In this document: positions 28,481 to 55,034 of the stretch, one piece after another
Position numbering within the stretch: position 1 is the stretch's first letter
Layout of the letters: each line of letters starts with the position of its first letter
Assembly (NCBI RefSeq): GCF_058153355.1
Contig: NZ_CM177019.1
DNA length: 64,000 nucleotides
Direction: 5' to 3' (one strand)
Made by a program: the position numbers and the translations under genes
Notes under the pieces: generated by a model
Told to the model about the DNA's origin: nothing
The model's input: only the letters and a program-made list of their open reading frames with translations
Databases searched by the model: none

Positions 28481-28500
28481 AAAGGAAAACGTTTCCGCTT
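28481..28500 (+). promoter_or_regulatory. PurR operator upstream of pyrC
   Basis: aaaggaAAACGTTTccgctt palindromic core matching the PurR box. Confidence 0.6.
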
Positions 28501-28511
28501 ATCCTTTGTGT

Positions 28512-28538
28512 CCGGCAAAAACATCCCTTCAGCCGGAG
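28512..28538 (+). promoter_or_regulatory. pyrC leader hairpin overlapping the Shine-Dalgarno sequence
   Basis: ccggc...gccgg inverted repeat with ggag SD just before the ATG at 28550. Confidence 0.5.
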
Positions 28539-28549
28539 CATAGAGATTA

Positions 28550-32684: not shown

Positions 32685-33260
32685 ATGAAAAAAAGCCTGC
32701 TTGGTTTAACCTTCGCTTCCATGATGTTCTCTGCCGGTTCAGCGGTTGCCGCCGATTACAAAATTGACAAAGAAGGTCAGCACGCCTTTGTTAATTTCCG
32801 CATCCAGCACCTTGGCTACAGCTGGTTATATGGCACCTTTAAAGATTTCGACGGTACTTTTACCTTTGATGAAAAAAATCCCGCTGCCGATAAAGTGAAT
32901 GTGACAATTAACACCACCAGCGTCGATACTAATCACGCCGAACGCGATAAACATCTTCGCAGTGCGGATTTCCTCAATACCGCAAAATATCCACAGGCAA
33001 CATTCACCTCCACTAGCGTAAAGAAAGACGGTGATGAGCTGGATATTACCGGCGATCTGACGCTGAACGGGGTCACCAAACCCGTCACGCTGGAAGCGAA
33101 ATTAATTGGTCAGGGCGACGACCCGTGGGGCGGTAAACGTGCAGGCTTTGAGGCCGAAGGCAAAATTAAGCTCAAAGACTTCAATATCAAGACAGATTTA
33201 GGTTCAGCTTCTCAGGAAGTGGATCTGATTATTTCAGTGGAAGGCGTACAGCAGAAGTAA
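32685..33260 (+). CDS. yceI: periplasmic YceI-family protein
   Basis: 191-aa ORF with signal peptide [22 protein letters not shown]. Confidence 0.9.
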
Positions 33261-33269
33261 GCGTGAAAT

Positions 33270-33292
33270 GTTGCCGGATGACACGCATCCGG
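33270..33292. terminator. bidirectional terminator hairpin between yceI and trhO
   Basis: ccggatgacacgcatccgg inverted repeat. Confidence 0.55.
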
Positions 33293-33301
33293 CAATGATA
33301 T

Positions 33302-34354
33302 TTATTCTGTTGGATCAGGAATGCCCAGTGTTGTATTCAGACGTCCACGAGACTTATTAAAGATCTTATTGCCATTTTCACGTCCTGCCCGACGGCGTCG
33401 CTGTTCTTCTGGCGGTAACGCGCTTTCTTCGCAGCAAATCTCACTGCAACAACCTTTGTATTTTTCTGCACATACTGGACACTGAATAAACAGCAGGTGG
33501 CAGCCATCATTTTTACAGTTGGTATGGCTGTCGCACGGCGCACCGCACTGGTGGCAATGCGCGATAATCTCATCAGAGATACGTTCGCCCATCCGCTCGT
33601 CAAACACAAAATTTTTGCCAATAAAACGCACCGGTAAGCCCTGCTCGCGCGCCTTACGGGCGTATTCAATAATTCCGCCTTCGATATGCCAGACTTTATT
33701 GAATCCGTTATGTTTCATCCAGGCACTGGCCTTTTCACAACGAATGCCGCCGGTGCAGTACATAACGATTTTTTTATCTTTATGTTCCTGCATCATCTCG
33801 ACTGCTTTTGGTAGCTGCTCACGGAAGGTATCTGCCGGAATTTCCAGCGCGTTTTCAAAGTGCCCCACTTCATACTCATAATGATTACGCATGTCGATAA
33901 ACAGTGCATCGGGATCGTCAAGCATGGCGTTCACTTCTGCCGCTTGCAGATACTCACCAACATTACTGGCATCGAAGTGAGGATCGTCAATACCGTCGGC
34001 TACGATGCGATCGCGCACCTTCATGCGCAGTACCCAGAAGGATTTCCCGTCATCATCCAACGCGATATTCAGGCGTAAGCCATCTAAAGCCGGGTCGAAG
34101 CCGTATAGCTGTGCGCGAAATGTTTCAACATTGCTCGCAGGTACACTGATTTGCGCGTTAATCCCCTCATGCGCCAGATACACTCGCCCAAAAATATTCA
34201 GCGCAGTAAACAGCTGATATAAAGCGTCACGGGTCGCTTTCGGATCGGCGATGTGGAAATACTTATAAAACGAAATGGTGGTGCGCGGTTCGCGCTCAGC
34301 CAACATTTTGGCTTTCAGCGCGTCGTTGGAAATGCGGTTGTGTAACACTGGCAT
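33302..34354 (-). CDS. trhO: rhodanese-domain tRNA uridine(34) hydroxylase TrhO (YceA)
   Basis: ORF 33302-34408; start placed at [16 protein letters not shown] (350 aa). Confidence 0.88.
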
Positions 34355-34578
34355 GGTGTACGGTTCCTGCGAGATGGGAAAGTAAAAATCCGCGGCATGA
34401 TATAGCAATTATCGATAATTAACATCCACGCATTTTACGCTACATTTGTGCATTAAAAATTATTTATTATTTACAAGCGCGGTAATTTCGCCCAGTCTTC
34501 AGCCACAAATTTTGGTTGCGGGCGAAAAAATGCGACAATACATACAATTGCCCGAATAGGTTGAAAAACAGGATTGAT

Positions 34579-35499
34579 ATGACGAATCTACCCAAGTTCT
34601 CCACCGCACTGCTTCATCCGCGTTATTGGTTAACCTGGTTGGGTATTGGCGTACTTTGGTTGGTCGTGCAATTGCCCTACCCGGTTATCTACCGCCTCGG
34701 TTGTGGATTAGGAAAACTGGCGTTACGTTTTATGAAACGACGCGCAAAAATTGTGCATCGCAACCTGGAACTGTGCTTCCCGAAAATGAGCGAACAAGAA
34801 CGCCGTAAAATGGTGGTGAAGAATTTCGAATCCGTTGGCATGGGACTGATGGAAACTGGCATGGCGTGGTTCTGGCCGGACCGCCGAATCGCCCGCTGGA
34901 CGGAAGTGATCGGCATGGAACACATTCGTGACGTGCAGGCGCAAAAACGCGGCATCCTGTTAGTTGGCATCCATTTTCTGACCCTGGAGCTGGGTGCGCG
35001 GCAGTTTGGTATGCAGGAGCCGGGCATTGGCGTTTACCGCCCGAACGATAATCCACTGATTGACTGGCTACAAACCTGGGGCCGTTTGCGCTCAAATAAA
35101 TCGATGCTCGACCGCAAAGATTTAAAAGGCATGATTAAAGCCCTGAAAAAAGGCGAAGTGGTCTGGTACGCACCGGATCATGATTACGGCCCGCGCTCAA
35201 GCGTTTTCGTCCCGTTGTTTGCCGTTGAGCAGGCTGCGACCACAACCGGAACCTGGATGCTGGCACGGATGTCCGGCGCATGTCTGGTGCCCTTCGTTCC
35301 ACGCCGTAAGCCAGATGGCAAAGGGTATCAGTTGATTATGCTACCGCCAGAGTGTTCTCCGCCGCTGGATGATGCCGAAACCACCGCCGCGTGGATGAAC
35401 AAAGTGGTCGAAAAATGCATCATGATGGCACCAGAGCAGTATATGTGGTTACACCGTCGCTTTAAAACACGTCCGGAAGGCGTTCCTTCACGCTATTAA
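34579..35499 (+). CDS. lpxL: lipid A lauroyl acyltransferase LpxL (HtrB)
   Basis: ORF 34516-35499; start placed at [17 protein letters not shown] (306 aa). Confidence 0.92.
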
Positions 35500-35506
35500 A
35501 TCTCCC

Positions 35507-35534
35507 ATGCCGGATGCTTCAAAATGGCATCCGG
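35507..35534 (+). terminator. terminator hairpin after lpxL
   Basis: gccggatgcttcaaaatggcatccggc inverted repeat. Confidence 0.5.
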
Positions 35535-35670
35535 CATTCCCACAGCAAATCCTCCTGATTTAGCGATAAAAGCTCTCTGGATTGCGCCCCCTGGAAGTCG
35601 GGCGCATAATTAGTGTGCTTATCTTTTCTTCTTATGTTCACCGCGCCTGGCGCACCAACAGCGGATTGCT

Positions 35671-36897
35671 ATGTCACCCTGTGAAAATGACACCCCTATA
35701 AACTGGAAACGAAACCTGATCGTCGCCTGGCTAGGCTGTTTTCTTACCGGTGCCGCCTTCAGCCTGGTAATGCCCTTCTTACCCCTCTACGTTGAGCAGC
35801 TTGGCGTTACGGGCCACTCCGCCTTGAATATGTGGTCCGGTATTGTCTTCAGCATTACATTTTTATTTTCGGCCATCGCCTCACCGTTTTGGGGTGGGCT
35901 TGCCGACCGTAAAGGCCGAAAACTCATGCTATTACGCTCTGCCCTTGGGATGGGCATCGTGATGGTGTTAATGGGGATGGCACAAAATATCTGGCAGTTT
36001 TTGATCCTGCGGGCGCTGCTTGGTTTGCTTGGCGGATTTGTTCCCAACGCTAATGCTCTTATCGCCACACAAGTACCGCGTAATAAAAGCGGCTGGGCGC
36101 TGGGTACGCTCTCCACAGGCGGCGTTAGCGGCGCGTTGCTCGGCCCAATGGCTGGTGGTTTGCTTGCCGATAGCTACGGCTTACGTCCGGTATTCTTTAT
36201 TACCGCCAGTGTGCTGATACTTTGCTTTTTCGTCACCCTGTTTTGCATCCGAGAAAAATTCCAGCCTGTCAGCAAAAAAGAGATGCTGCACATGCGAGAA
36301 GTGGTGACATCACTTAAAAACCCGAAACTGGTACTCAGCCTGTTTGTCACCACGTTAATCATCCAGGTGGCGACGGGTTCAATTGCCCCTATTCTGACGC
36401 TGTATGTACGCGAACTGGCGGGTAACGTCAGTAATGTCGCCTTTATCAGCGGCATGATCGCCTCGGTGCCAGGCGTGGCTGCTCTGCTGAGTGCACCACG
36501 ACTCGGCAAACTTGGCGATCGAATCGGACCCGAAAAGATCCTGATTACAGCGTTGATCTTTTCTGTACTGCTGTTGATCCCAATGTCTTACGTTCAGACA
36601 CCGTTACAACTTGGGATCTTACGCTTTTTGCTCGGTGCTGCCGATGGTGCACTACTCCCCGCCGTACAGACACTATTGGTTTACAACTCAAGCAACCAAA
36701 TCGCCGGGCGTATTTTCAGCTATAACCAATCGTTTCGTGATATTGGCAACGTTACCGGACCATTGATGGGAGCAGCGATTTCAGCGAACTACGGTTTCAG
36801 AGCGGTATTCCTCGTCACCGCTGGCGTAGTGTTATTCAACGCAGTCTATTCATGGAACAGTCTGCGCCGTCGTCGGATACCCCAGGTATCAAACTGA
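35671..36897 (+). CDS. mdtG: MFS multidrug efflux transporter MdtG
   Basis: 408-aa [36 protein letters not shown]... Confidence 0.93.
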
Positions 36898-36979
36898 TTT
36901 TTCGCCTTTCATACTTGCAATAGCGGAGAATCAGCTATCCTTTTCCCTGAAACCTCATCAACTCAAAGGGAGAATCGTG

Positions 36980-37354
36980 ATGACCATGTACGCAACGCTT
37001 GAAGAAGCCATTGACGCTGCACGCGAAGAATTTCTTGCAGACAACCCCGGCATCGACGCCGAAAATGCGAATGTGCAACAGTTCAATGCCCAAAAATACG
37101 TTTTGCAGGACGGCGACATCATGTGGCAAGTTGAGTTTTTTGCCGACGAAGGGGAAGAAGGTGAATGTTTACCTATGCTTAGCGGTGAAGCCGCGCAAAG
37201 TGTTTTTGATGGCGACTATGATGAGATAGAAATCCGCCAGGAGTGGCAGGAAGAGAATACATTACATGAATGGGACGAGGGGGAATTTCAGCTTGAGCCA
37301 CCGCTGGATACGGAAGAAGGACGGGCAGCTGCTGATGAGTGGGATGAACGCTAA
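36980..37354 (+). CDS. msyB: acidic protein MsyB
   Basis: 124-aa highly acidic frame MTMYATLEEAIDAAREEFLADNPG... Confidence 0.9.
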   Translation: MTMYATLEEAIDAAREEFLADNPGIDAENANVQQFNAQKYVLQDGDIMWQVEFFADEGEEGECLPMLSGEAAQSVFDGDYDEIEIRQEWQEENTLHEWDEGEFQLEPPLDTEEGRAAADEWDER

Positions 37355-37582
37355 TTACTCATACGAGCCATGATGAATGTCGATCGGCAGCAGTAAAGTA
37401 TCAAAAACCAGGGAGAATGGCAGATCAAGGATCGTGACGTAACGCCAGGCGGAGTCACGCACATCCCATTGCACACCGGGATAATATTGGTTGCCATGCC
37501 CCTGCCCCGGTATAGTGCGACTAATGATGCTGCCACAGCCACACAGCAAGGTCACCATGATGCTCACCATAATTAAACGCAT
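37355..37582 (-). CDS. yceK: lipoprotein YceK
   Basis: 75-aa ORF MRLIMVSIMVTLLCGCGS (lipobox). Confidence 0.88.
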   Translation of the reverse strand: MRLIMVSIMVTLLCGCGSIISRTIPGQGHGNQYYPGVQWDVRDSAWRYVTILDLPFSLVFDTLLLPIDIHHGSYE

Positions 37583-37608
37583 TTGATACCCCTTCCGTAA
37601 AAAAATAC

Positions 37609-37621
37609 CGGCATAACGCCG
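37609..37621. repeat. IS4 target-site duplication, left copy (cggcataacgccg)
   Basis: 13-bp direct repeat immediately flanking the IS4 end; identical copy at 39048-39060. Confidence 0.8.
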
Positions 37622-39047
37622 TAATGCCAGTCAGTTAAGCAACTGACTGGCTCTTTTTCGGGGCTGTGGGGTATTTCCAGGGCCTCTCCTTTACCACTCT
37701 CGGGAAGGCCCTTTCCCTTCTTGTCGGTAATTTCACAAGTTGTCCCATACTTGCAAGATCGCGCATCAGCTCCGGTATACGTCCCGGTGAAGCGCCCTGC
37801 AATGTCATCAGCATTCTCATCACCATTCCGCATGATTCTGAGAAACTCAGTTGATTCGGCCAGTAACCTTTCAGATGTTCCGCCATTTTAATCATCTGAT
37901 ATCTCACCAGATTATAAGCCAGTAAGACACCCCACAGCTCTTGCTCCACAAGCTCCGGCTTTTTACTTCTCAGCGTCAGCCTGCTCAGTTGCATCGTCTG
38001 TTTTATCTCCCTGTATCCCAGTTCGATTTCCCAGCGATGACTGTACAGATCCGCCATTTCTCCTCCGGGGAAGCGCATGGCGTCCGTCATCGACGTCAGC
38101 AGATGGCAGACTTTTCCTTTGCGCGTCACGGTCAGCAGGCGGGCTGTCACTTCATTTCCCAGTCCCGGCCACTTTTTTCGTGCCTGCGGGCTGGTTTTCA
38201 GCTTCACCAGATGATCGCCTTTACCCAGTTTTCTGATCTCTTCATATTGCGCTCCCTTTCTGAGAGGTATCATCCAGTGGCGGTGTTCTCCCGCCAGGCT
38301 CCAGGCATTTAACAGTCCCAGTGAGTAATAACCTTTATCCATTAACGTCAGAGTGTTATCGCCGGTTTGTTCTATAAGTTGCTCAGCAAGCTCATTTTCG
38401 CTGTTCTTCATCGTGCCGAAGGCTGCAGCCGTCAGCAGATGGCTGGTCAGTTCCATCTGGCAGACCATTTTGACCTGCGGGTAGAGCGCCGGGTTCCCGG
38501 CATGTGTCTGGCGGGGGAAGGCTGCATCGTTCTCTGGTGTATCCGGTGTGCGCCAGAACACACCATCGATGGCCAGCAGGGTCAGGCCGCACCAGTGCGG
38601 ATGCGGCGTGGCGTTATGCCAGAGCTGCGCTGTTTTCGTGAACACGCGGCGGACAGCCTCACTTCCCAGGCGCTGGCGGGCCTGAATAACGGCACTGGGG
38701 GCAACGAAGGGGCGATTGCCCGGCAGCATGATGTCCAGGCGATTCACAATCTGGTGAAGAGGTTCTTTACGCTCAAGCGCCATGCCAACAATACACCAGA
38801 CCATCATTTCGAGGGGAAGACGGCGCTTGCGTAGCGTTACAGTACCTGATTCGGCAAGGCAACGAGAGATGAGTTCGGGGTCGAGGTAATCCCCCAGAGA
38901 AGTCAGTGGGTTACGCAGAGAATCGTAACGGGATACCAGATCAAGAGCCTGTCCAATGTGCATAAAAAAATCCGGAAACAAGTGAGCGTTTCCGGATTCT
39001 TACACAGCCACTGGATCGGTCAACTGATCCTTAACTGATCGGCATTA
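37622..39047 (-). mobile_element. IS4 insertion sequence, complete (1426 bp)
   Basis: Terminal inverted repeats TAATGCCAGTCAGTTAAG / TAATGCCGATCAGTTAAG (right end as reverse complement), IS4-type transposase inside, 13-bp flanking direct repeat. Confidence 0.93.
37635..38963 (-). CDS. insG: IS4 transposase InsG
   Basis: ORF 37635-38981; start placed at [16 protein letters not shown] (442 aa); recognised as the IS4 transposase. Confidence 0.93.
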
Positions 39048-39060
39048 CGGCATAACGCCG
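39048..39060. repeat. IS4 target-site duplication, right copy (cggcataacgccg)
   Basis: Identical to 37609-37621. Confidence 0.8.
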
Positions 39061-39085
39061 GTATTTTTATTGGCTCGTTGTTTTT

Positions 39086-39182
39086 GCCTAATGCGGCGTG
39101 AACGCCTTATCCGACCTACAAAATCTTGCAAAATCAATACATCGTAGAACGTTGTAGGCCTGGTAAGCGTAGCGCATCAGGC
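39086..39182. repeat. REP/BIME cluster downstream of opgH
   Basis: gcctaatgcggcgtgaacgccttatccgacctac and gtaggcctggtaagcgtagcgcatcaggc motifs. Confidence 0.7.
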
Positions 39183-39191
39183 AACTACGTT

Positions 39192-43374
<4,183 letters not shown>

Positions 43375-43656
43375 TCAGCACGCTGGCTCATGGATTAAGC
43401 ACCTGATTGCAACCGTTTTCACTTTCCGTGCTTCTCCTAAAGACAGAAGCATCGACTTCGTGTAGGGTTTGCCAGCAAATTTATTTATCAACCGTCTTAC
43501 AGACGCTTCCATTCTGGTTAGTGGTAGCGATGATGCTATGCATAAAAACCTTGAAGCCTGCGTCTGGCGCGGTCAGGTCGGTGTCGCTATGGCAACAAGC
43601 CTAAAGGCATAACCCGACAGGGATAAGACGAAAAATCCGAGATTAGTTAACCATAT

Positions 43657-44814
43657 ATGAATCCAGTACCCGCGCAACGTGAATATTTCCTCGACTCCAT
43701 CCGCGCCTGGCTGATGTTGTTAGGGATCCCTTTTCATATTTCTTTAATCTATTCGAGCCATACATGGCATGTGAATAGCGCCGAACCGTCATTGTGGCTG
43801 ACCCTTTTTAATGACTTCATCCACTCGTTCCGCATGCAGGTATTTTTCGTTATATCCGGGTACTTTTCTTACATGCTTTTTTTACGCTATCCCTTGAAAA
43901 AATGGTGGAAAGTACGTGTCGAACGTGTAGGGATCCCGATGTTAACAGCCATCCCCCTACTGACATTGCCGCAATTTATTATGCTGCAATACGTCAAAGG
44001 GAAAGCGGAAAGTTGGCCTGGGCTGTCATTGTATGACAAATATAATACGTTGGCCTGGGAATTAATATCACACCTGTGGTTTTTACTGGTGTTAGTGGTC
44101 ATGACGACGCTGTGCGTATGGATATTTAAACGCATCAGAAATAATTTAGAAAATTCTGATAAAACGAATAAAAAATTCTCGATGGTAAAATTATCGGTGA
44201 TTTTTTTGTGCCTCGGCATCGGTTATGCGGTAATAAGAAGAACGATTTTTATTGTGTATCCACCCATTCTGAGTAACGGCATGTTCAATTTTATTGTCAT
44301 GCAAACGTTATTTTATTTGCCGTTCTTTATCCTCGGCGCACTGGCTTTCATTTTCCCTCATCTTAAAGCCTTGTTTACCACGCCGTCTCGTGGCTGTACC
44401 CTCGCAGCAGCATTGGCATTTGTCGCTTACTTACTCAACCAGCGCTATGGCAGTGGCGATGCCTGGATGTACGAAACCGAGTCGGTGATCACCATGGTCC
44501 TCGGTCTGTGGATGGTGAATGTGGTCTTCTCCTTCGGCCACCGTTTGCTTAACTTCCAGTCAGCGCGGGTGACTTACTTTGTTAACGCATCGCTATTTAT
44601 CTATCTGGTTCACCACCCGTTAACGCTGTTTTTCGGCGCGTACATTACACCGCACATCACCTCCAACTGGCTTGGTTTTCTCTGTGGCCTGATATTCGTA
44701 GTAGGGATTGCGATAATTCTGTATGAAATTCATTTACGCATCCCGTTACTGAAGTTTTTGTTCTCTGGTAAACCGGTTGTTAAGCGTGAGAACGATAAAG
44801 CACCAGCCCGTTAA
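43657..44814 (+). CDS. opgC: periplasmic glucan succinyltransferase OpgC (MdoC)
   Basis: 385-aa polytopic membrane acyltransferase-3 family ORF, divergent from opgGH. Confidence 0.9.
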
Positions 44815-54946: not shown

Positions 54947-55034
54947 GGTGAGGTGTCCGAGTGGCTGAAGGAGCACGCCTGGAAAGTGTGTATACGGCAA
55001 CGTATCGGGGGTTCGAATCCCCCCCTCACCGCCA
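54947..55034 (+). tRNA. serX: tRNA-Ser (anticodon GGA)
   Basis: 88-nt type II tRNA ggtgaggtgtccgagtggctgaagg...ggttcgaatccccccctcaccgCCA with long variable arm and encoded CCA; -35 TTGACC / -10 TAAATT upstream. Confidence 0.93.

Follow-up and report, generated by a model that had tools for sequence, protein, structure and literature searches.

We found that an ordinary, intact, essentially reference-type IS4 lies between opgH and yceK in the window, by which we mean the whole 64,000-nucleotide stretch of contig NZ_CM177019.1 (assembly GCF_058153355.1) that was analysed. With a probability that we put at roughly 90%, this intact element transposed into the type of target that IS4 prefers, a GC-rich palindrome between A- and T-runs about 20 bp apart, which at this locus is the terminator-like hairpin between opgH and yceK. 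The finding is already known in kind: both the insertion sequence and its type of target are textbook cases, and public annotations of 17 E. coli genomes already include this insertion.

An intact IS4 and its empty site

The element has the same length as the IS4 of K-12 MG1655 (NC_000913.3 4502090-4503515) and differs from it at 3 of 1426 nucleotides (1423/1426 identical); the other E. coli copies that we compared are 1-12 nucleotides away from the window copy. Its terminal inverted repeats, TAATGCCGATCAGTTAAG and TAATGCCAGTCAGTTAAG, match at 16 of 18 positions and begin TAATGCC, as IS4 ends do, and the IS-end pattern occurs at only two places in the 64-kb window, both of them termini of this element, against an expectation of 0.04. 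The transposase, a single uninterrupted ORF in whose translation the Y-2-R-3-E-6-K signature is visible, gave a full-length match to the IS4 family transposase model NF033592 of NCBIfam (304 bits; cut-off 115). The protein is identical to that of four other E. coli copies and differs from K-12 InsG by two amino acids (440/442 identical). The ORF, predicted to encode a DDE transposase, and the two IS4 ends are intact. Length, ends, near-identity to the reference, ORF, duplication and target type all place the element in the IS4 subgroup of the IS4 family, and the first-pass annotation, which had called a complete 1426-bp IS4 with imperfect 18-bp ends, described it accurately (Table 1).

Table 1 Positions of the IS4 element, its target and neighbouring features in the window
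Feature	Position	Strand	Description
msyB	36980..37354	+	Convergent with yceK, stops abutting; from ORF and annotation
yceK (YceK/YidQ lipoprotein, 75 aa)	37355..37582	-	NCBIfam NF007555, 163.6 bits, cut-off 123; homologous-locus annotation
Outer left arm of split palindrome	37599..37608		A7 followed by TAC; read as minus strand, the T-run 3' of the residual mini-hairpin
Target-site duplication, yceK-side copy	37609..37621		CGGCATAACGCCG; direct repeat
Complete IS4	37622..39047	-	1426 bp; transposase sense is minus; IRL at 39047, IRR at 37622
IRR, 18-bp terminal inverted repeat	37622..37639	+	TAATGCCAGTCAGTTAAG inward; 16/18 positions match IRL
IRR-proximal hairpin	37626..37661	+	11-bp stem GCCAGTCAGTT/AACTGACTGGC, then TCTTTTT; terminator-like in scan, inverted repeat, fold
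IS4 transposase gene (insG type)	37635..38963	-	442 aa, intact; ATG 38963, stop 37635
IRL-proximal hairpin	38966..39001	-	AATCCGGAAAC/GTTTCCGGATT, then T7, then transposase ATG; inverted repeat
Promoter-like site for transposase	38996..39023	-	TTGACC, 16-nt spacer, AAGAAT, TG ahead of -10; consensus match only
IRL, 18-bp terminal inverted repeat	39030..39047	-	TAATGCCGATCAGTTAAG inward on minus strand
Target-site duplication, opgH-side copy	39048..39060		CGGCATAACGCCG; direct repeat
Outer right arm of split palindrome	39061..39068		GTA then T5
Inverted REP-like pair (BIME)	39079..39185		Inverted repeat between opgH stop and hairpin; outside IS4 target
opgH (mdoH)	39192..41735	-	ORF; start set by the annotated 2544-nt mdoH of L001

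The 13-bp target duplication that had been proposed is exact: CGGCATAACGCCG abuts both IS4 ends, and an exact 13-mer at both termini is not a chance match. Removal of IS4 and one duplicate in silico gives GTAAAAAAATACCGGCATAACGCCGGTATTTTTATTGG, that is, A7-TACCGGC-ATAAC-GCCGGTA-T5, a perfect palindrome that also reads AAA-taccggcataacgccggtat-TTT (AAA, 20 nucleotides, TTT), the duplication lying midway between its arms. The empty sites of K-12, O157:H7 and the goat isolate R32_14_1F match this reconstruction base for base, and that of ATCC 25922 has the same sequence with an A-run shorter by one A. The first-pass annotation had predicted that removal would restore a perfect hairpin between A- and T-runs, and had named an empty site of different sequence as the observation that would count against it; the palindrome was present in all four E. 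coli genomes. Its arms now lie on opposite sides of IS4, in keeping with the further claim that the insertion splits the hairpin. No gene is disrupted by the insertion.

Misassembly commonly arises at repeats, and an assembler might in principle have misplaced an IS4 copy here. We regard such an artefact as very unlikely, to the point of being practically negligible: the 13 bp duplicated at the two junctions are without mismatch and are precisely the bases predicted from the empty site, and the same structure is present in 17 complete genomes, each assembled independently.

Recurrent occupation of the opgH-yceK position

The locus is uninterrupted in 5390 of 5426 complete E. coli genomes. Seventeen complete E. 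coli genomes in RefSeq, among them P27_L1_05.20, TW10690, MS 21-1 and APEC 789, have IS4 at the opgH-yceK position, where it is annotated as 'IS4-like element IS4 family transposase'; three of the 17 have the orientation seen in the window and 14 the opposite one. Ten of the occupied sites were compared, and these comprise at least four flank haplotypes and at least four IS variants. Both orientations occur among them, and the duplication is the same 13 bp at nine sites and 12 bp in one genome. The window flanks form a haplotype separate from those of the other occupied sites (14-17 differences per 400 nucleotides), and the genomes nearest to the window flanks, at 99.0-99.4% identity, are not among the 17 that are occupied; in R32_14_1F, the nearest on the yceK side, the site was empty on reading. 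On this evidence the opgH-yceK hairpin is a recurrent IS4 hotspot, which unrelated lineages of E. coli have had hit repeatedly and in either orientation, the count of independent insertions being drawn from haplotypes of short flanks rather than from genome phylogeny.

A single ancient insertion, inherited or spread by recombination, would instead account readily for the identical position at all occupied sites and for the 13-bp duplication shared by nine of the ten sites examined. It is highly improbable given the presence of both orientations and of a genome with a 12-bp duplication, the divergence of the at least four flank haplotypes starting within 20-30 bp of the IS, IS variants up to 16 nucleotides apart, and the lack of IS4 in the closest relatives of the window flanks. 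Identical IS variants also sit on identical flanks in opposite orientations (L001 versus L133; L003 versus L137). For L001 and L133, independent insertion appears likelier than inversion in situ, since no more than about 8-12 bp of inverted homology flanks the IS.

Other IS4 copies showed 21-bp flank matches to the window, which raised the idea that IS4 carries flanking DNA or sits within a repeat family; this was rejected, since the matches proved to be either this palindromic site occupied the other way round or further hairpins that resemble terminators. As a repeatedly occupied position, the opgH-yceK hairpin is a handy natural marker and a ready substrate for the study of IS4 target choice.

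Target choice across IS4-type sites

One layout is common to four E. coli loci, opgH-yceK, pgi-yjbE, obgE-dacB and pdeA-nupC: a GC hairpin lies between an A-run and a T-run, and its dyad is the centre of the duplication. We surveyed IS4-type insertions more widely, using 113 unique flanks from many Gammaproteobacteria, recovered by a scan of 100,044 species genomes. T's occupy positions +17 to +19 in 78-85% of these flanks, TTTT lies near the junction in 73% (7% in background), and a perfect inner palindrome is present in 50% (2% in background); by comparison, 2.1% of 671 AAA-N20-TTT control sites hold a palindrome. Further base preferences are C at +1, C at +3/+4 and G at +9 to +13. Duplications of 11-14 bp flank 12 of 17 complete copies, and most reconstructed targets fold as A-run, GC hairpin and T-run; the stems of these targets differ in sequence from site to site yet remain self-complementary. 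An ORF of at least 100 amino acids ends 15-60 nucleotides from the junction at 49% of the sites, compared with 2.9% of random points. The statement that the window insertion adds a structured, palindromic target does not hold as a novelty, because nearly all of the IS4 targets that we examined are such palindromes.

The AAA-N20-TTT consensus is said to have been derived by Mayaux et al. from IS4 insertions in galT and in the pheST attenuator. The window target fits this rule, and the T's conserved at +17 to +19 across the 113 sites fall where AAA-N20-TTT predicts them for a 12-bp duplication; what the survey adds is that the core is usually a self-complementary, GC-rich stem just past a stop codon, resembling an intrinsic terminator. 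The resident IS4 of K-12 (insG) has in common with the window copy its length of 1426 bp, its terminal repeats, a duplication in the 11-13 bp class and an AAA-N20-TTT site, but it lies elsewhere, between yjgZ and nanX, with a 12-bp duplication and a target of little hairpin potential, in contrast to the hairpin target of the window copy. The weak hairpin at the K-12 site indicates that a hairpin is not obligatory for IS4. Literature searches on IS4 target structure returned nothing beyond De Palmenaer 2008 (PMC2266710), which describes a striking target-arm specificity in the IS4 subgroup, in agreement with the palindromic targets seen here; Lee et al. 2016 report eight new IS4 insertions in mutation-accumulation lines.

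The symmetry of the insertion about the dyad is visible in the sequence. Following the chemistry of the IS4 family, the 13-bp duplication would have arisen from attack by the two IS ends at points 13 bp apart, equally far from the hairpin dyad, and from repair of the staggered joints. In the reading that we favour, the position of the insertion reflects the target preference of the transposase, not selection on yceK.

We tentatively entertain a bolder and rather doubtful model in which IS4 is a dedicated terminator-homing element: its transposase would read the architecture of a bidirectional terminator, possibly as an extruded hairpin or cruciform, in place of a fixed sequence, and the element would bring inward-facing replacement terminators at its ends. 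Under terminator homing, such terminators at both ends would make insertions nearly silent transcriptionally, and few natural landing pads in E. coli would be hotter than the opgH-yceK hairpin. The target data fit equally well with a symmetric transposase dimer that recognises a degenerate, palindromic preference in sequence.

Homing to extragenic palindromes is known from other elements, Tn7, which inserts downstream of glmS, being a further example. IS1397 and ISKpn1 insert in REP/BIME sequences, and the IS4-family element ISRm22 inserts in REPs (Tobes and Pareja 2006, PMC1525189). IS4 shares with these elements a strategy of inserting into intergenic palindromic DNA at gene ends, which spares coding sequence; what defines an IS4 target, unlike theirs, is its architecture rather than membership of a single repeat family. 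IS4 bypassed a pair of elements about 20 bp away (39079-39185), which we take to be REPs from the REP consensus, and used the hairpin flanked by A- and T-runs. The bypassed BIME segment has several matches per genome. That more than 100 Gammaproteobacteria sites lie in terminator-like hairpins just past stop codons may explain why IS4-type elements are so often harmless.

Transcription around the insertion

The intact hairpin has an 8-bp GC-rich core stem, a 5-nucleotide loop and A7 and T5 flanks, giving a U-run of 5-7 on either strand, and its predicted folding energies on the two strands are -18.3 and -17.9 kcal/mol (z-scores -2.8 and -3.2). A bidirectional terminator is plausible on these predictions. 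On the minus strand opgH lies upstream of the hairpin, with its stop 131 bp away and the BIME between them, and yceK itself lies downstream, a layout that is tandem plus convergent. The yceK-msyB pair is listed as a convergent excludon (PMC12288877), and because the two genes adjoin stop to stop, plus-strand transcripts of msyB would meet no terminator before the hairpin or, in the occupied locus, before the IRR hairpin of IS4.

It may be that the palindrome is simply an IS4 recognition sequence with no terminator function, and that the insertion has no transcriptional meaning. Three observations point that way: the supplementary tables of Adams et al. 2021, in the part available to us, list no mapped RNA 3' end at the hairpin, the nearby entry being only a Rho-dependent 3' end antisense to msyB; a simple scan for terminators passes over the intact K-12 hairpin; and a BIME is already present between opgH and the hairpin. 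As we read the algorithm, the scan would miss the hairpin because its stem extends into the A- and T-runs, leaving no T tail. The stem, loop, paired U-runs and stability of the hairpin, together with the location of 49% of IS4 targets across genera 15-60 nucleotides past stop codons, the usual place of intrinsic terminators, make a palindrome without terminator function unlikely.

The insertion is predicted to have destroyed the original hairpin as a unit. The IRR-proximal hairpin looks like an inward-facing terminator for transcripts that arrive from the yceK/msyB side, and msyB transcripts would be expected to stop there. Transcripts of opgGH would stop about 50-85 nucleotides inside IRL, at an inward-facing terminator-like hairpin. 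A weakened hairpin of 4-5 bp with a T-run would be left directly upstream of yceK; on the minus strand this remnant, CGGC-GTTAT-GCCG (37621-37609) with the tail GTATTTTTTT, was flagged as terminator-like. With inward hairpins at the IS ends and this residual hairpin, yceK probably loses any transcription that had reached it from opgH, while the IS contributes little in return. Strains with this insertion would be predicted to show altered 3' ends for yceK, msyB and opgGH, not gene activation.

The transposase does read toward yceK, as the first-pass annotation had noted, both genes being on the minus strand (37635-38963 and 37355-37582). We found no support for its suggestion of yceK expression through read-through or an outward promoter. 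Between the transposase and yceK lie the 11-bp IS-end hairpin and then the residual hairpin with its T7, and the standard scan detected no sigma-70-like yceK promoter, whether the site was occupied or empty. With no such promoter even in the empty site, the further claim that the insertion cuts yceK off from any upstream promoter is unsupported. A looser scan around yceK gave weak candidates only. The best one at the junction (CTGGCA, 17-nucleotide spacer, TATTTT), 39 bp separating the IS4 end from the yceK ATG, ends 19 nucleotides before that ATG and scores 8/12, one point above the 7/12 that this -10 reaches in the empty site and below the scan threshold of 9/12.

An adaptive reading, in which IS4 was retained for altered yceK expression by read-through or by this hybrid promoter (-35 from the IS end, -10 from the flank), would draw on the orientation of the window transposase and on the one-point gain in promoter score. 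We consider it decidedly unlikely, given the weakness of the hybrid promoter and the two hairpins between the transposase stop and yceK. The yceK-activating orientation is not common to the insertions either, since 14 of the 17 occupied genomes have IS4 pointing away, and occupation of only 17 of 5426 genomes gives no sign of a sweep; moreover, the general IS4 target rule fully explains the choice of site. Insertion by target preference is the reading that we retain. Rfam gave no hit in 33000-44000, and its hits across the whole window are ordinary E. coli features.

The element may also be buffered against transcription from outside. IS10 and IS50 are guarded from activation by outside transcription through fold-back inhibition. 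In a similar way, by structure prediction only, read-through RNA entering past the IRL of IS4 can fold into a long hairpin with U7 at its end and the transposase ATG hidden inside (-43 to -54 kcal/mol), whereas RNA from the element's own predicted start site cannot, folding at only -7 kcal/mol. The IRL-proximal hairpin is thus predicted to stop, or to mask translationally, transcripts that read in from outside. The promoter-like site ahead of the transposase is the sole sigma-70-like hit (9/12; standard scan, threshold 9/12) within 37200-39400.

The IS4 copy and its surroundings

Judged by its sequence, the element between opgH and yceK is IS4 itself and intact: it is bounded by 18-bp inverted repeats that agree at 16 positions (TAATGCCGATCAGTTAAG and TAATGCCAGTCAGTTAAG), each end adjoins one copy of an exact target duplication, and the transposase carries the IS4-family signature and covers the whole NCBIfam profile NF033592 (IS4 family transposase) with a score of 304 bits (cut-off 115). 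It differs from the annotated copy of K-12 MG1655 (NC_000913.3 4502090-4503515) by 3 of 1426 nt and 2 of 442 aa, and four other E. coli copies encode the identical protein. The first-pass annotation of a complete 1426-bp IS4 with imperfect repeats and a 13-bp duplication, lying about 40 bp upstream of yceK with its transposase reading toward that gene, is therefore borne out, the yceK ATG being 39 bp from the IS4 end. Within the transposase gene, the 11-nt GGCGTTATGCC at 38610-38620 is the exact reverse complement of the duplication core GGCATAACGCC; chance alone would give roughly 0.0007 such matches over both strands of a 1426-bp sequence, and this may be coincidence, as other IS4 targets have different cores.

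Features of the opgH-yceK locus and its IS4 insertion
Feature	Coordinates	Strand	Remarks
IS4 element	37622-39047	minus (transposase sense)	1426 bp
Transposase ORF	ATG 38963 to stop 37635	minus	sole long ORF of IS4, 442 aa
Target-site duplication	37609-37621 and 39048-39060		exact 13-bp direct repeat CGGCATAACGCCG, adjoins each IS4 end
opgH	stop at 39192	minus	
REP-like inverted pair (BIME)	39079-39185		between opgH stop and hairpin
yceK	37582-37355	minus	NF007555, 163.6 bits
msyB	36980-37354	plus	convergent with yceK

Read along the minus strand, opgG and opgH are followed by the REP-like pair, then by a hairpin split by IS4, and finally by yceK. The stop codons of yceK and msyB adjoin at 37352-37357 with zero intergenic bases, meaning that the transcript of each must cross the other gene antisense; in K-12 this pair has been named as a convergent excludon (PMC12288877), and 3'-end data place a Rho-dependent 3' end antisense to msyB. 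The REP-like pair was not chosen as an IS4 target; much of what sets the window apart from other E. coli lies in it, two 1-nt gaps among them. The flanks reach at best 99.0-99.4% identity to complete RefSeq E. coli genomes, placing the source in an E. coli-group lineage outside that collection. Taken as a whole, the window is a commonplace piece of E. coli-type chromosome from the region of rne, pyrC and opgGH; Rfam and ARAGORN matches elsewhere in it (4420-4588, 6449-6785, 28500-28549 and 54947-55034), among them SraB, the rne 5' UTR element, the PyrC leader and tRNA-Ser(GGA), are nothing unusual.

The opgH-yceK hairpin as a recurrent target

Deleting IS4 and one repeat in silico yielded GTAAAAAAATACCGGCATAACGCCGGTATTTTTATTGG, the palindromic empty site predicted at first pass, which is identical to the real uninterrupted loci of K-12, O157:H7 and R32_14_1F and lacks only one A in ATCC 25922; the locus is uninterrupted in 5390 of 5426 complete genomes. 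With an 8-bp GC-rich core stem, a 5-nt loop and flanking A7 and T5 runs, the palindrome is predicted to fold as RNA at -18.3 kcal/mol on the minus strand and -17.9 on the plus strand (z-scores -2.8 and -3.2), and it looks like a bidirectional intrinsic terminator. No experimental 3'-end data for this hairpin turned up in the literature searched, and its terminator function is putative. A simple terminator scan did not flag the intact palindrome in K-12 (900-940 of the extracted locus, L005); the same scan flags the shortened half-hairpin left after insertion (37600-37621). The miss probably arises because the intact stem takes in both runs, A and T, and no T tail is left over; such scans need care when applied to bidirectional terminators.

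IS4 occupies this position in the window's orientation in three complete E. coli genomes, and searching with the IS turned round brought up 14 further genomes that have it in the opposite orientation. Among ten occupied sites compared in detail, the window included, its position is identical in all ten and the duplication is 13 bp in nine; the exception, E. coli VL46 (NZ_CM177010.1; L002, locus ~3410-4860), shares the window's IS4 position and orientation but has a 12-bp duplication, which stems either from a separate insertion event with another stagger or from an assembly error of 1 nt. The ten represent at least four flank haplotypes, whose differences start within 20-30 bp of the IS, and their IS4 variants are up to 16 nt apart. 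The window's haplotype differs from each of the other nine at 14-17 of 400 nt, and R32_14_1F, its nearest relative on the yceK side, has the empty site. On these sequence comparisons, several independent insertions into a recurrent hotspot are much the simplest account. Two pairs of E. coli genomes (L001 and L133; L003 and L137) share the same 400-nt flanks and the same IS4 sequence with the IS in opposite orientations; these could be independent insertions of one variant or could have arisen by inversion of IS4 in situ.

Across the opgH-side junction, the duplicated bases and the IS terminus form a new 9-bp hairpin (CGGCGUUAU/GUAAUGCCG, -16.2 kcal/mol), because the IS4 terminus TAATGCCG is similar to the target half-site TTATGCCG (39040-39060, minus strand). 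ATGCCG-like half-sites also occur in several other IS4 targets, a hint that IS4 might recognise its targets and its own ends in related ways.

Predicted effects on transcription

Minus-strand opgGH transcripts would first meet this fortuitous junction hairpin, which has no U-run after it, and would then reach an 11-bp hairpin with U7 at 39001-38966, just before the transposase ATG. Read-through RNA over this region is predicted to fold at -43 to -54 kcal/mol with the start codon buried, compared with only -7 kcal/mol for RNA from IS4's own promoter-like site (39023-38996). IS10 and IS50 are protected against outside transcription, and the predicted folding of the IS4 read-through RNA resembles that protection. 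On the plus strand, msyB transcripts would meet the hairpin of the inverted repeat IRR (37626-37651), which is followed by TCTTTTT and flagged as terminator-like.

Between the transposase stop and yceK lie the 11-bp IRR hairpin and then a residual CGGC-GTTAT-GCCG hairpin with GTATTTTTTT, also flagged as terminator-like. A standard scan detected no sigma-70-like yceK promoter, whether the site was empty or occupied. At the junction the best candidate is CTGGCA-17-TATTTT with 8/12, the same -10 scores 7/12 in the empty site, and the literature searched contained nothing on a yceK promoter. The earlier suggestion that read-through or an outward promoter could drive yceK is unsupported: the intervening hairpins, the weak promoters and the predominance of the opposite orientation argue against the insertion serving that end. 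More probably, yceK would lose whatever transcription came from upstream.

IS4 targets beyond this locus

Other E. coli copies lie between pgi and yjbE, obgE and dacB, and pdeA and nupC (the last in both orientations); at each, the midpoint of the 13-bp duplication falls on a GC-rich hairpin with an A run and a T run at its sides. A survey with the 22-nt end of the inverted repeat IRL, covering a single genome for each bacterial species, gave at least 120 loci (Aeromonas, Budvicia, Kosakonia, Pectobacterium, Photorhabdus, Edwardsiella, Silvania, Dryocola and others). In 113 unique outward flanks, C stands at +1 in 70% and T at +17, +18 and +19 in 81%, 85% and 78%; TTTT falls within +12 to +28 in 73% versus 7% of background, and the inner 4+4 bases are perfectly complementary in 50% versus 2%. 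The duplication is 11-14 bp in 12 of 17 complete copies with both flanks, most of whose reconstructed targets fold as A-run, GC-hairpin and T-run. Of 100 sites, 49% have an ORF (100 aa or longer) that faces the IS and stops 15-60 nt short of the junction, compared with 2.9% of random points.

The 1984 pheST-attenuator paper and the 1998 Insertion Sequences review reportedly give AAA-N20-TTT as the IS4 target consensus, and the T run at +17 to +19 is where that consensus predicts it for a 12-bp duplication. Of 671 control AAA-N20-TTT sites 2.1% have a palindromic core, so self-complementarity is an additional feature of the target; the resident K-12 copy has an AAA-N20-TTT target and a 12-bp duplication but little hairpin, showing that the hairpin is preferred, not obligatory. 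Striking specificity in target arms has been described for the IS4 subgroup (De Palmenaer et al. 2008, PMC2266710). The survey of more than 100 sites sharpens the target statement to terminator-like hairpins just past stop codons, which may already be in print. With the window's insertion, a known element has entered a kind of target already known for it, at a position where 17 public genomes carry annotated copies. Of the first-pass reading, the terminator-like target and its splitting stand, the palindromic target is no addition to what is known of IS4, and yceK activation is unsupported.

Among the surveyed loci, a very short, 265-bp contig of Methylobacterium mesophilicum NBRC 15688 (L066) has an IS4 flank (ATCTTGGTTCTGGTGTTTGTAAC...) identical to the K-12 MG1655 junction and is therefore probably E. 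coli K-12 contamination in that assembly. Two IS4-like copies (L122 and L123) have exchanged flanks, the left of one and the right of the other forming a proper duplication, a signature of inversion via recombination between two IS copies. The exact 22-nt IRL end occurs, among the matches listed, at at least 20 loci in Kosakonia oryziphila REICA_142 (L068-L087) and at least 13 in the soil MAG CTSoil_132 (L013-L025); these many copies, mostly at contig ends, indicate large and recent expansions of IS4-type elements outside Escherichia.
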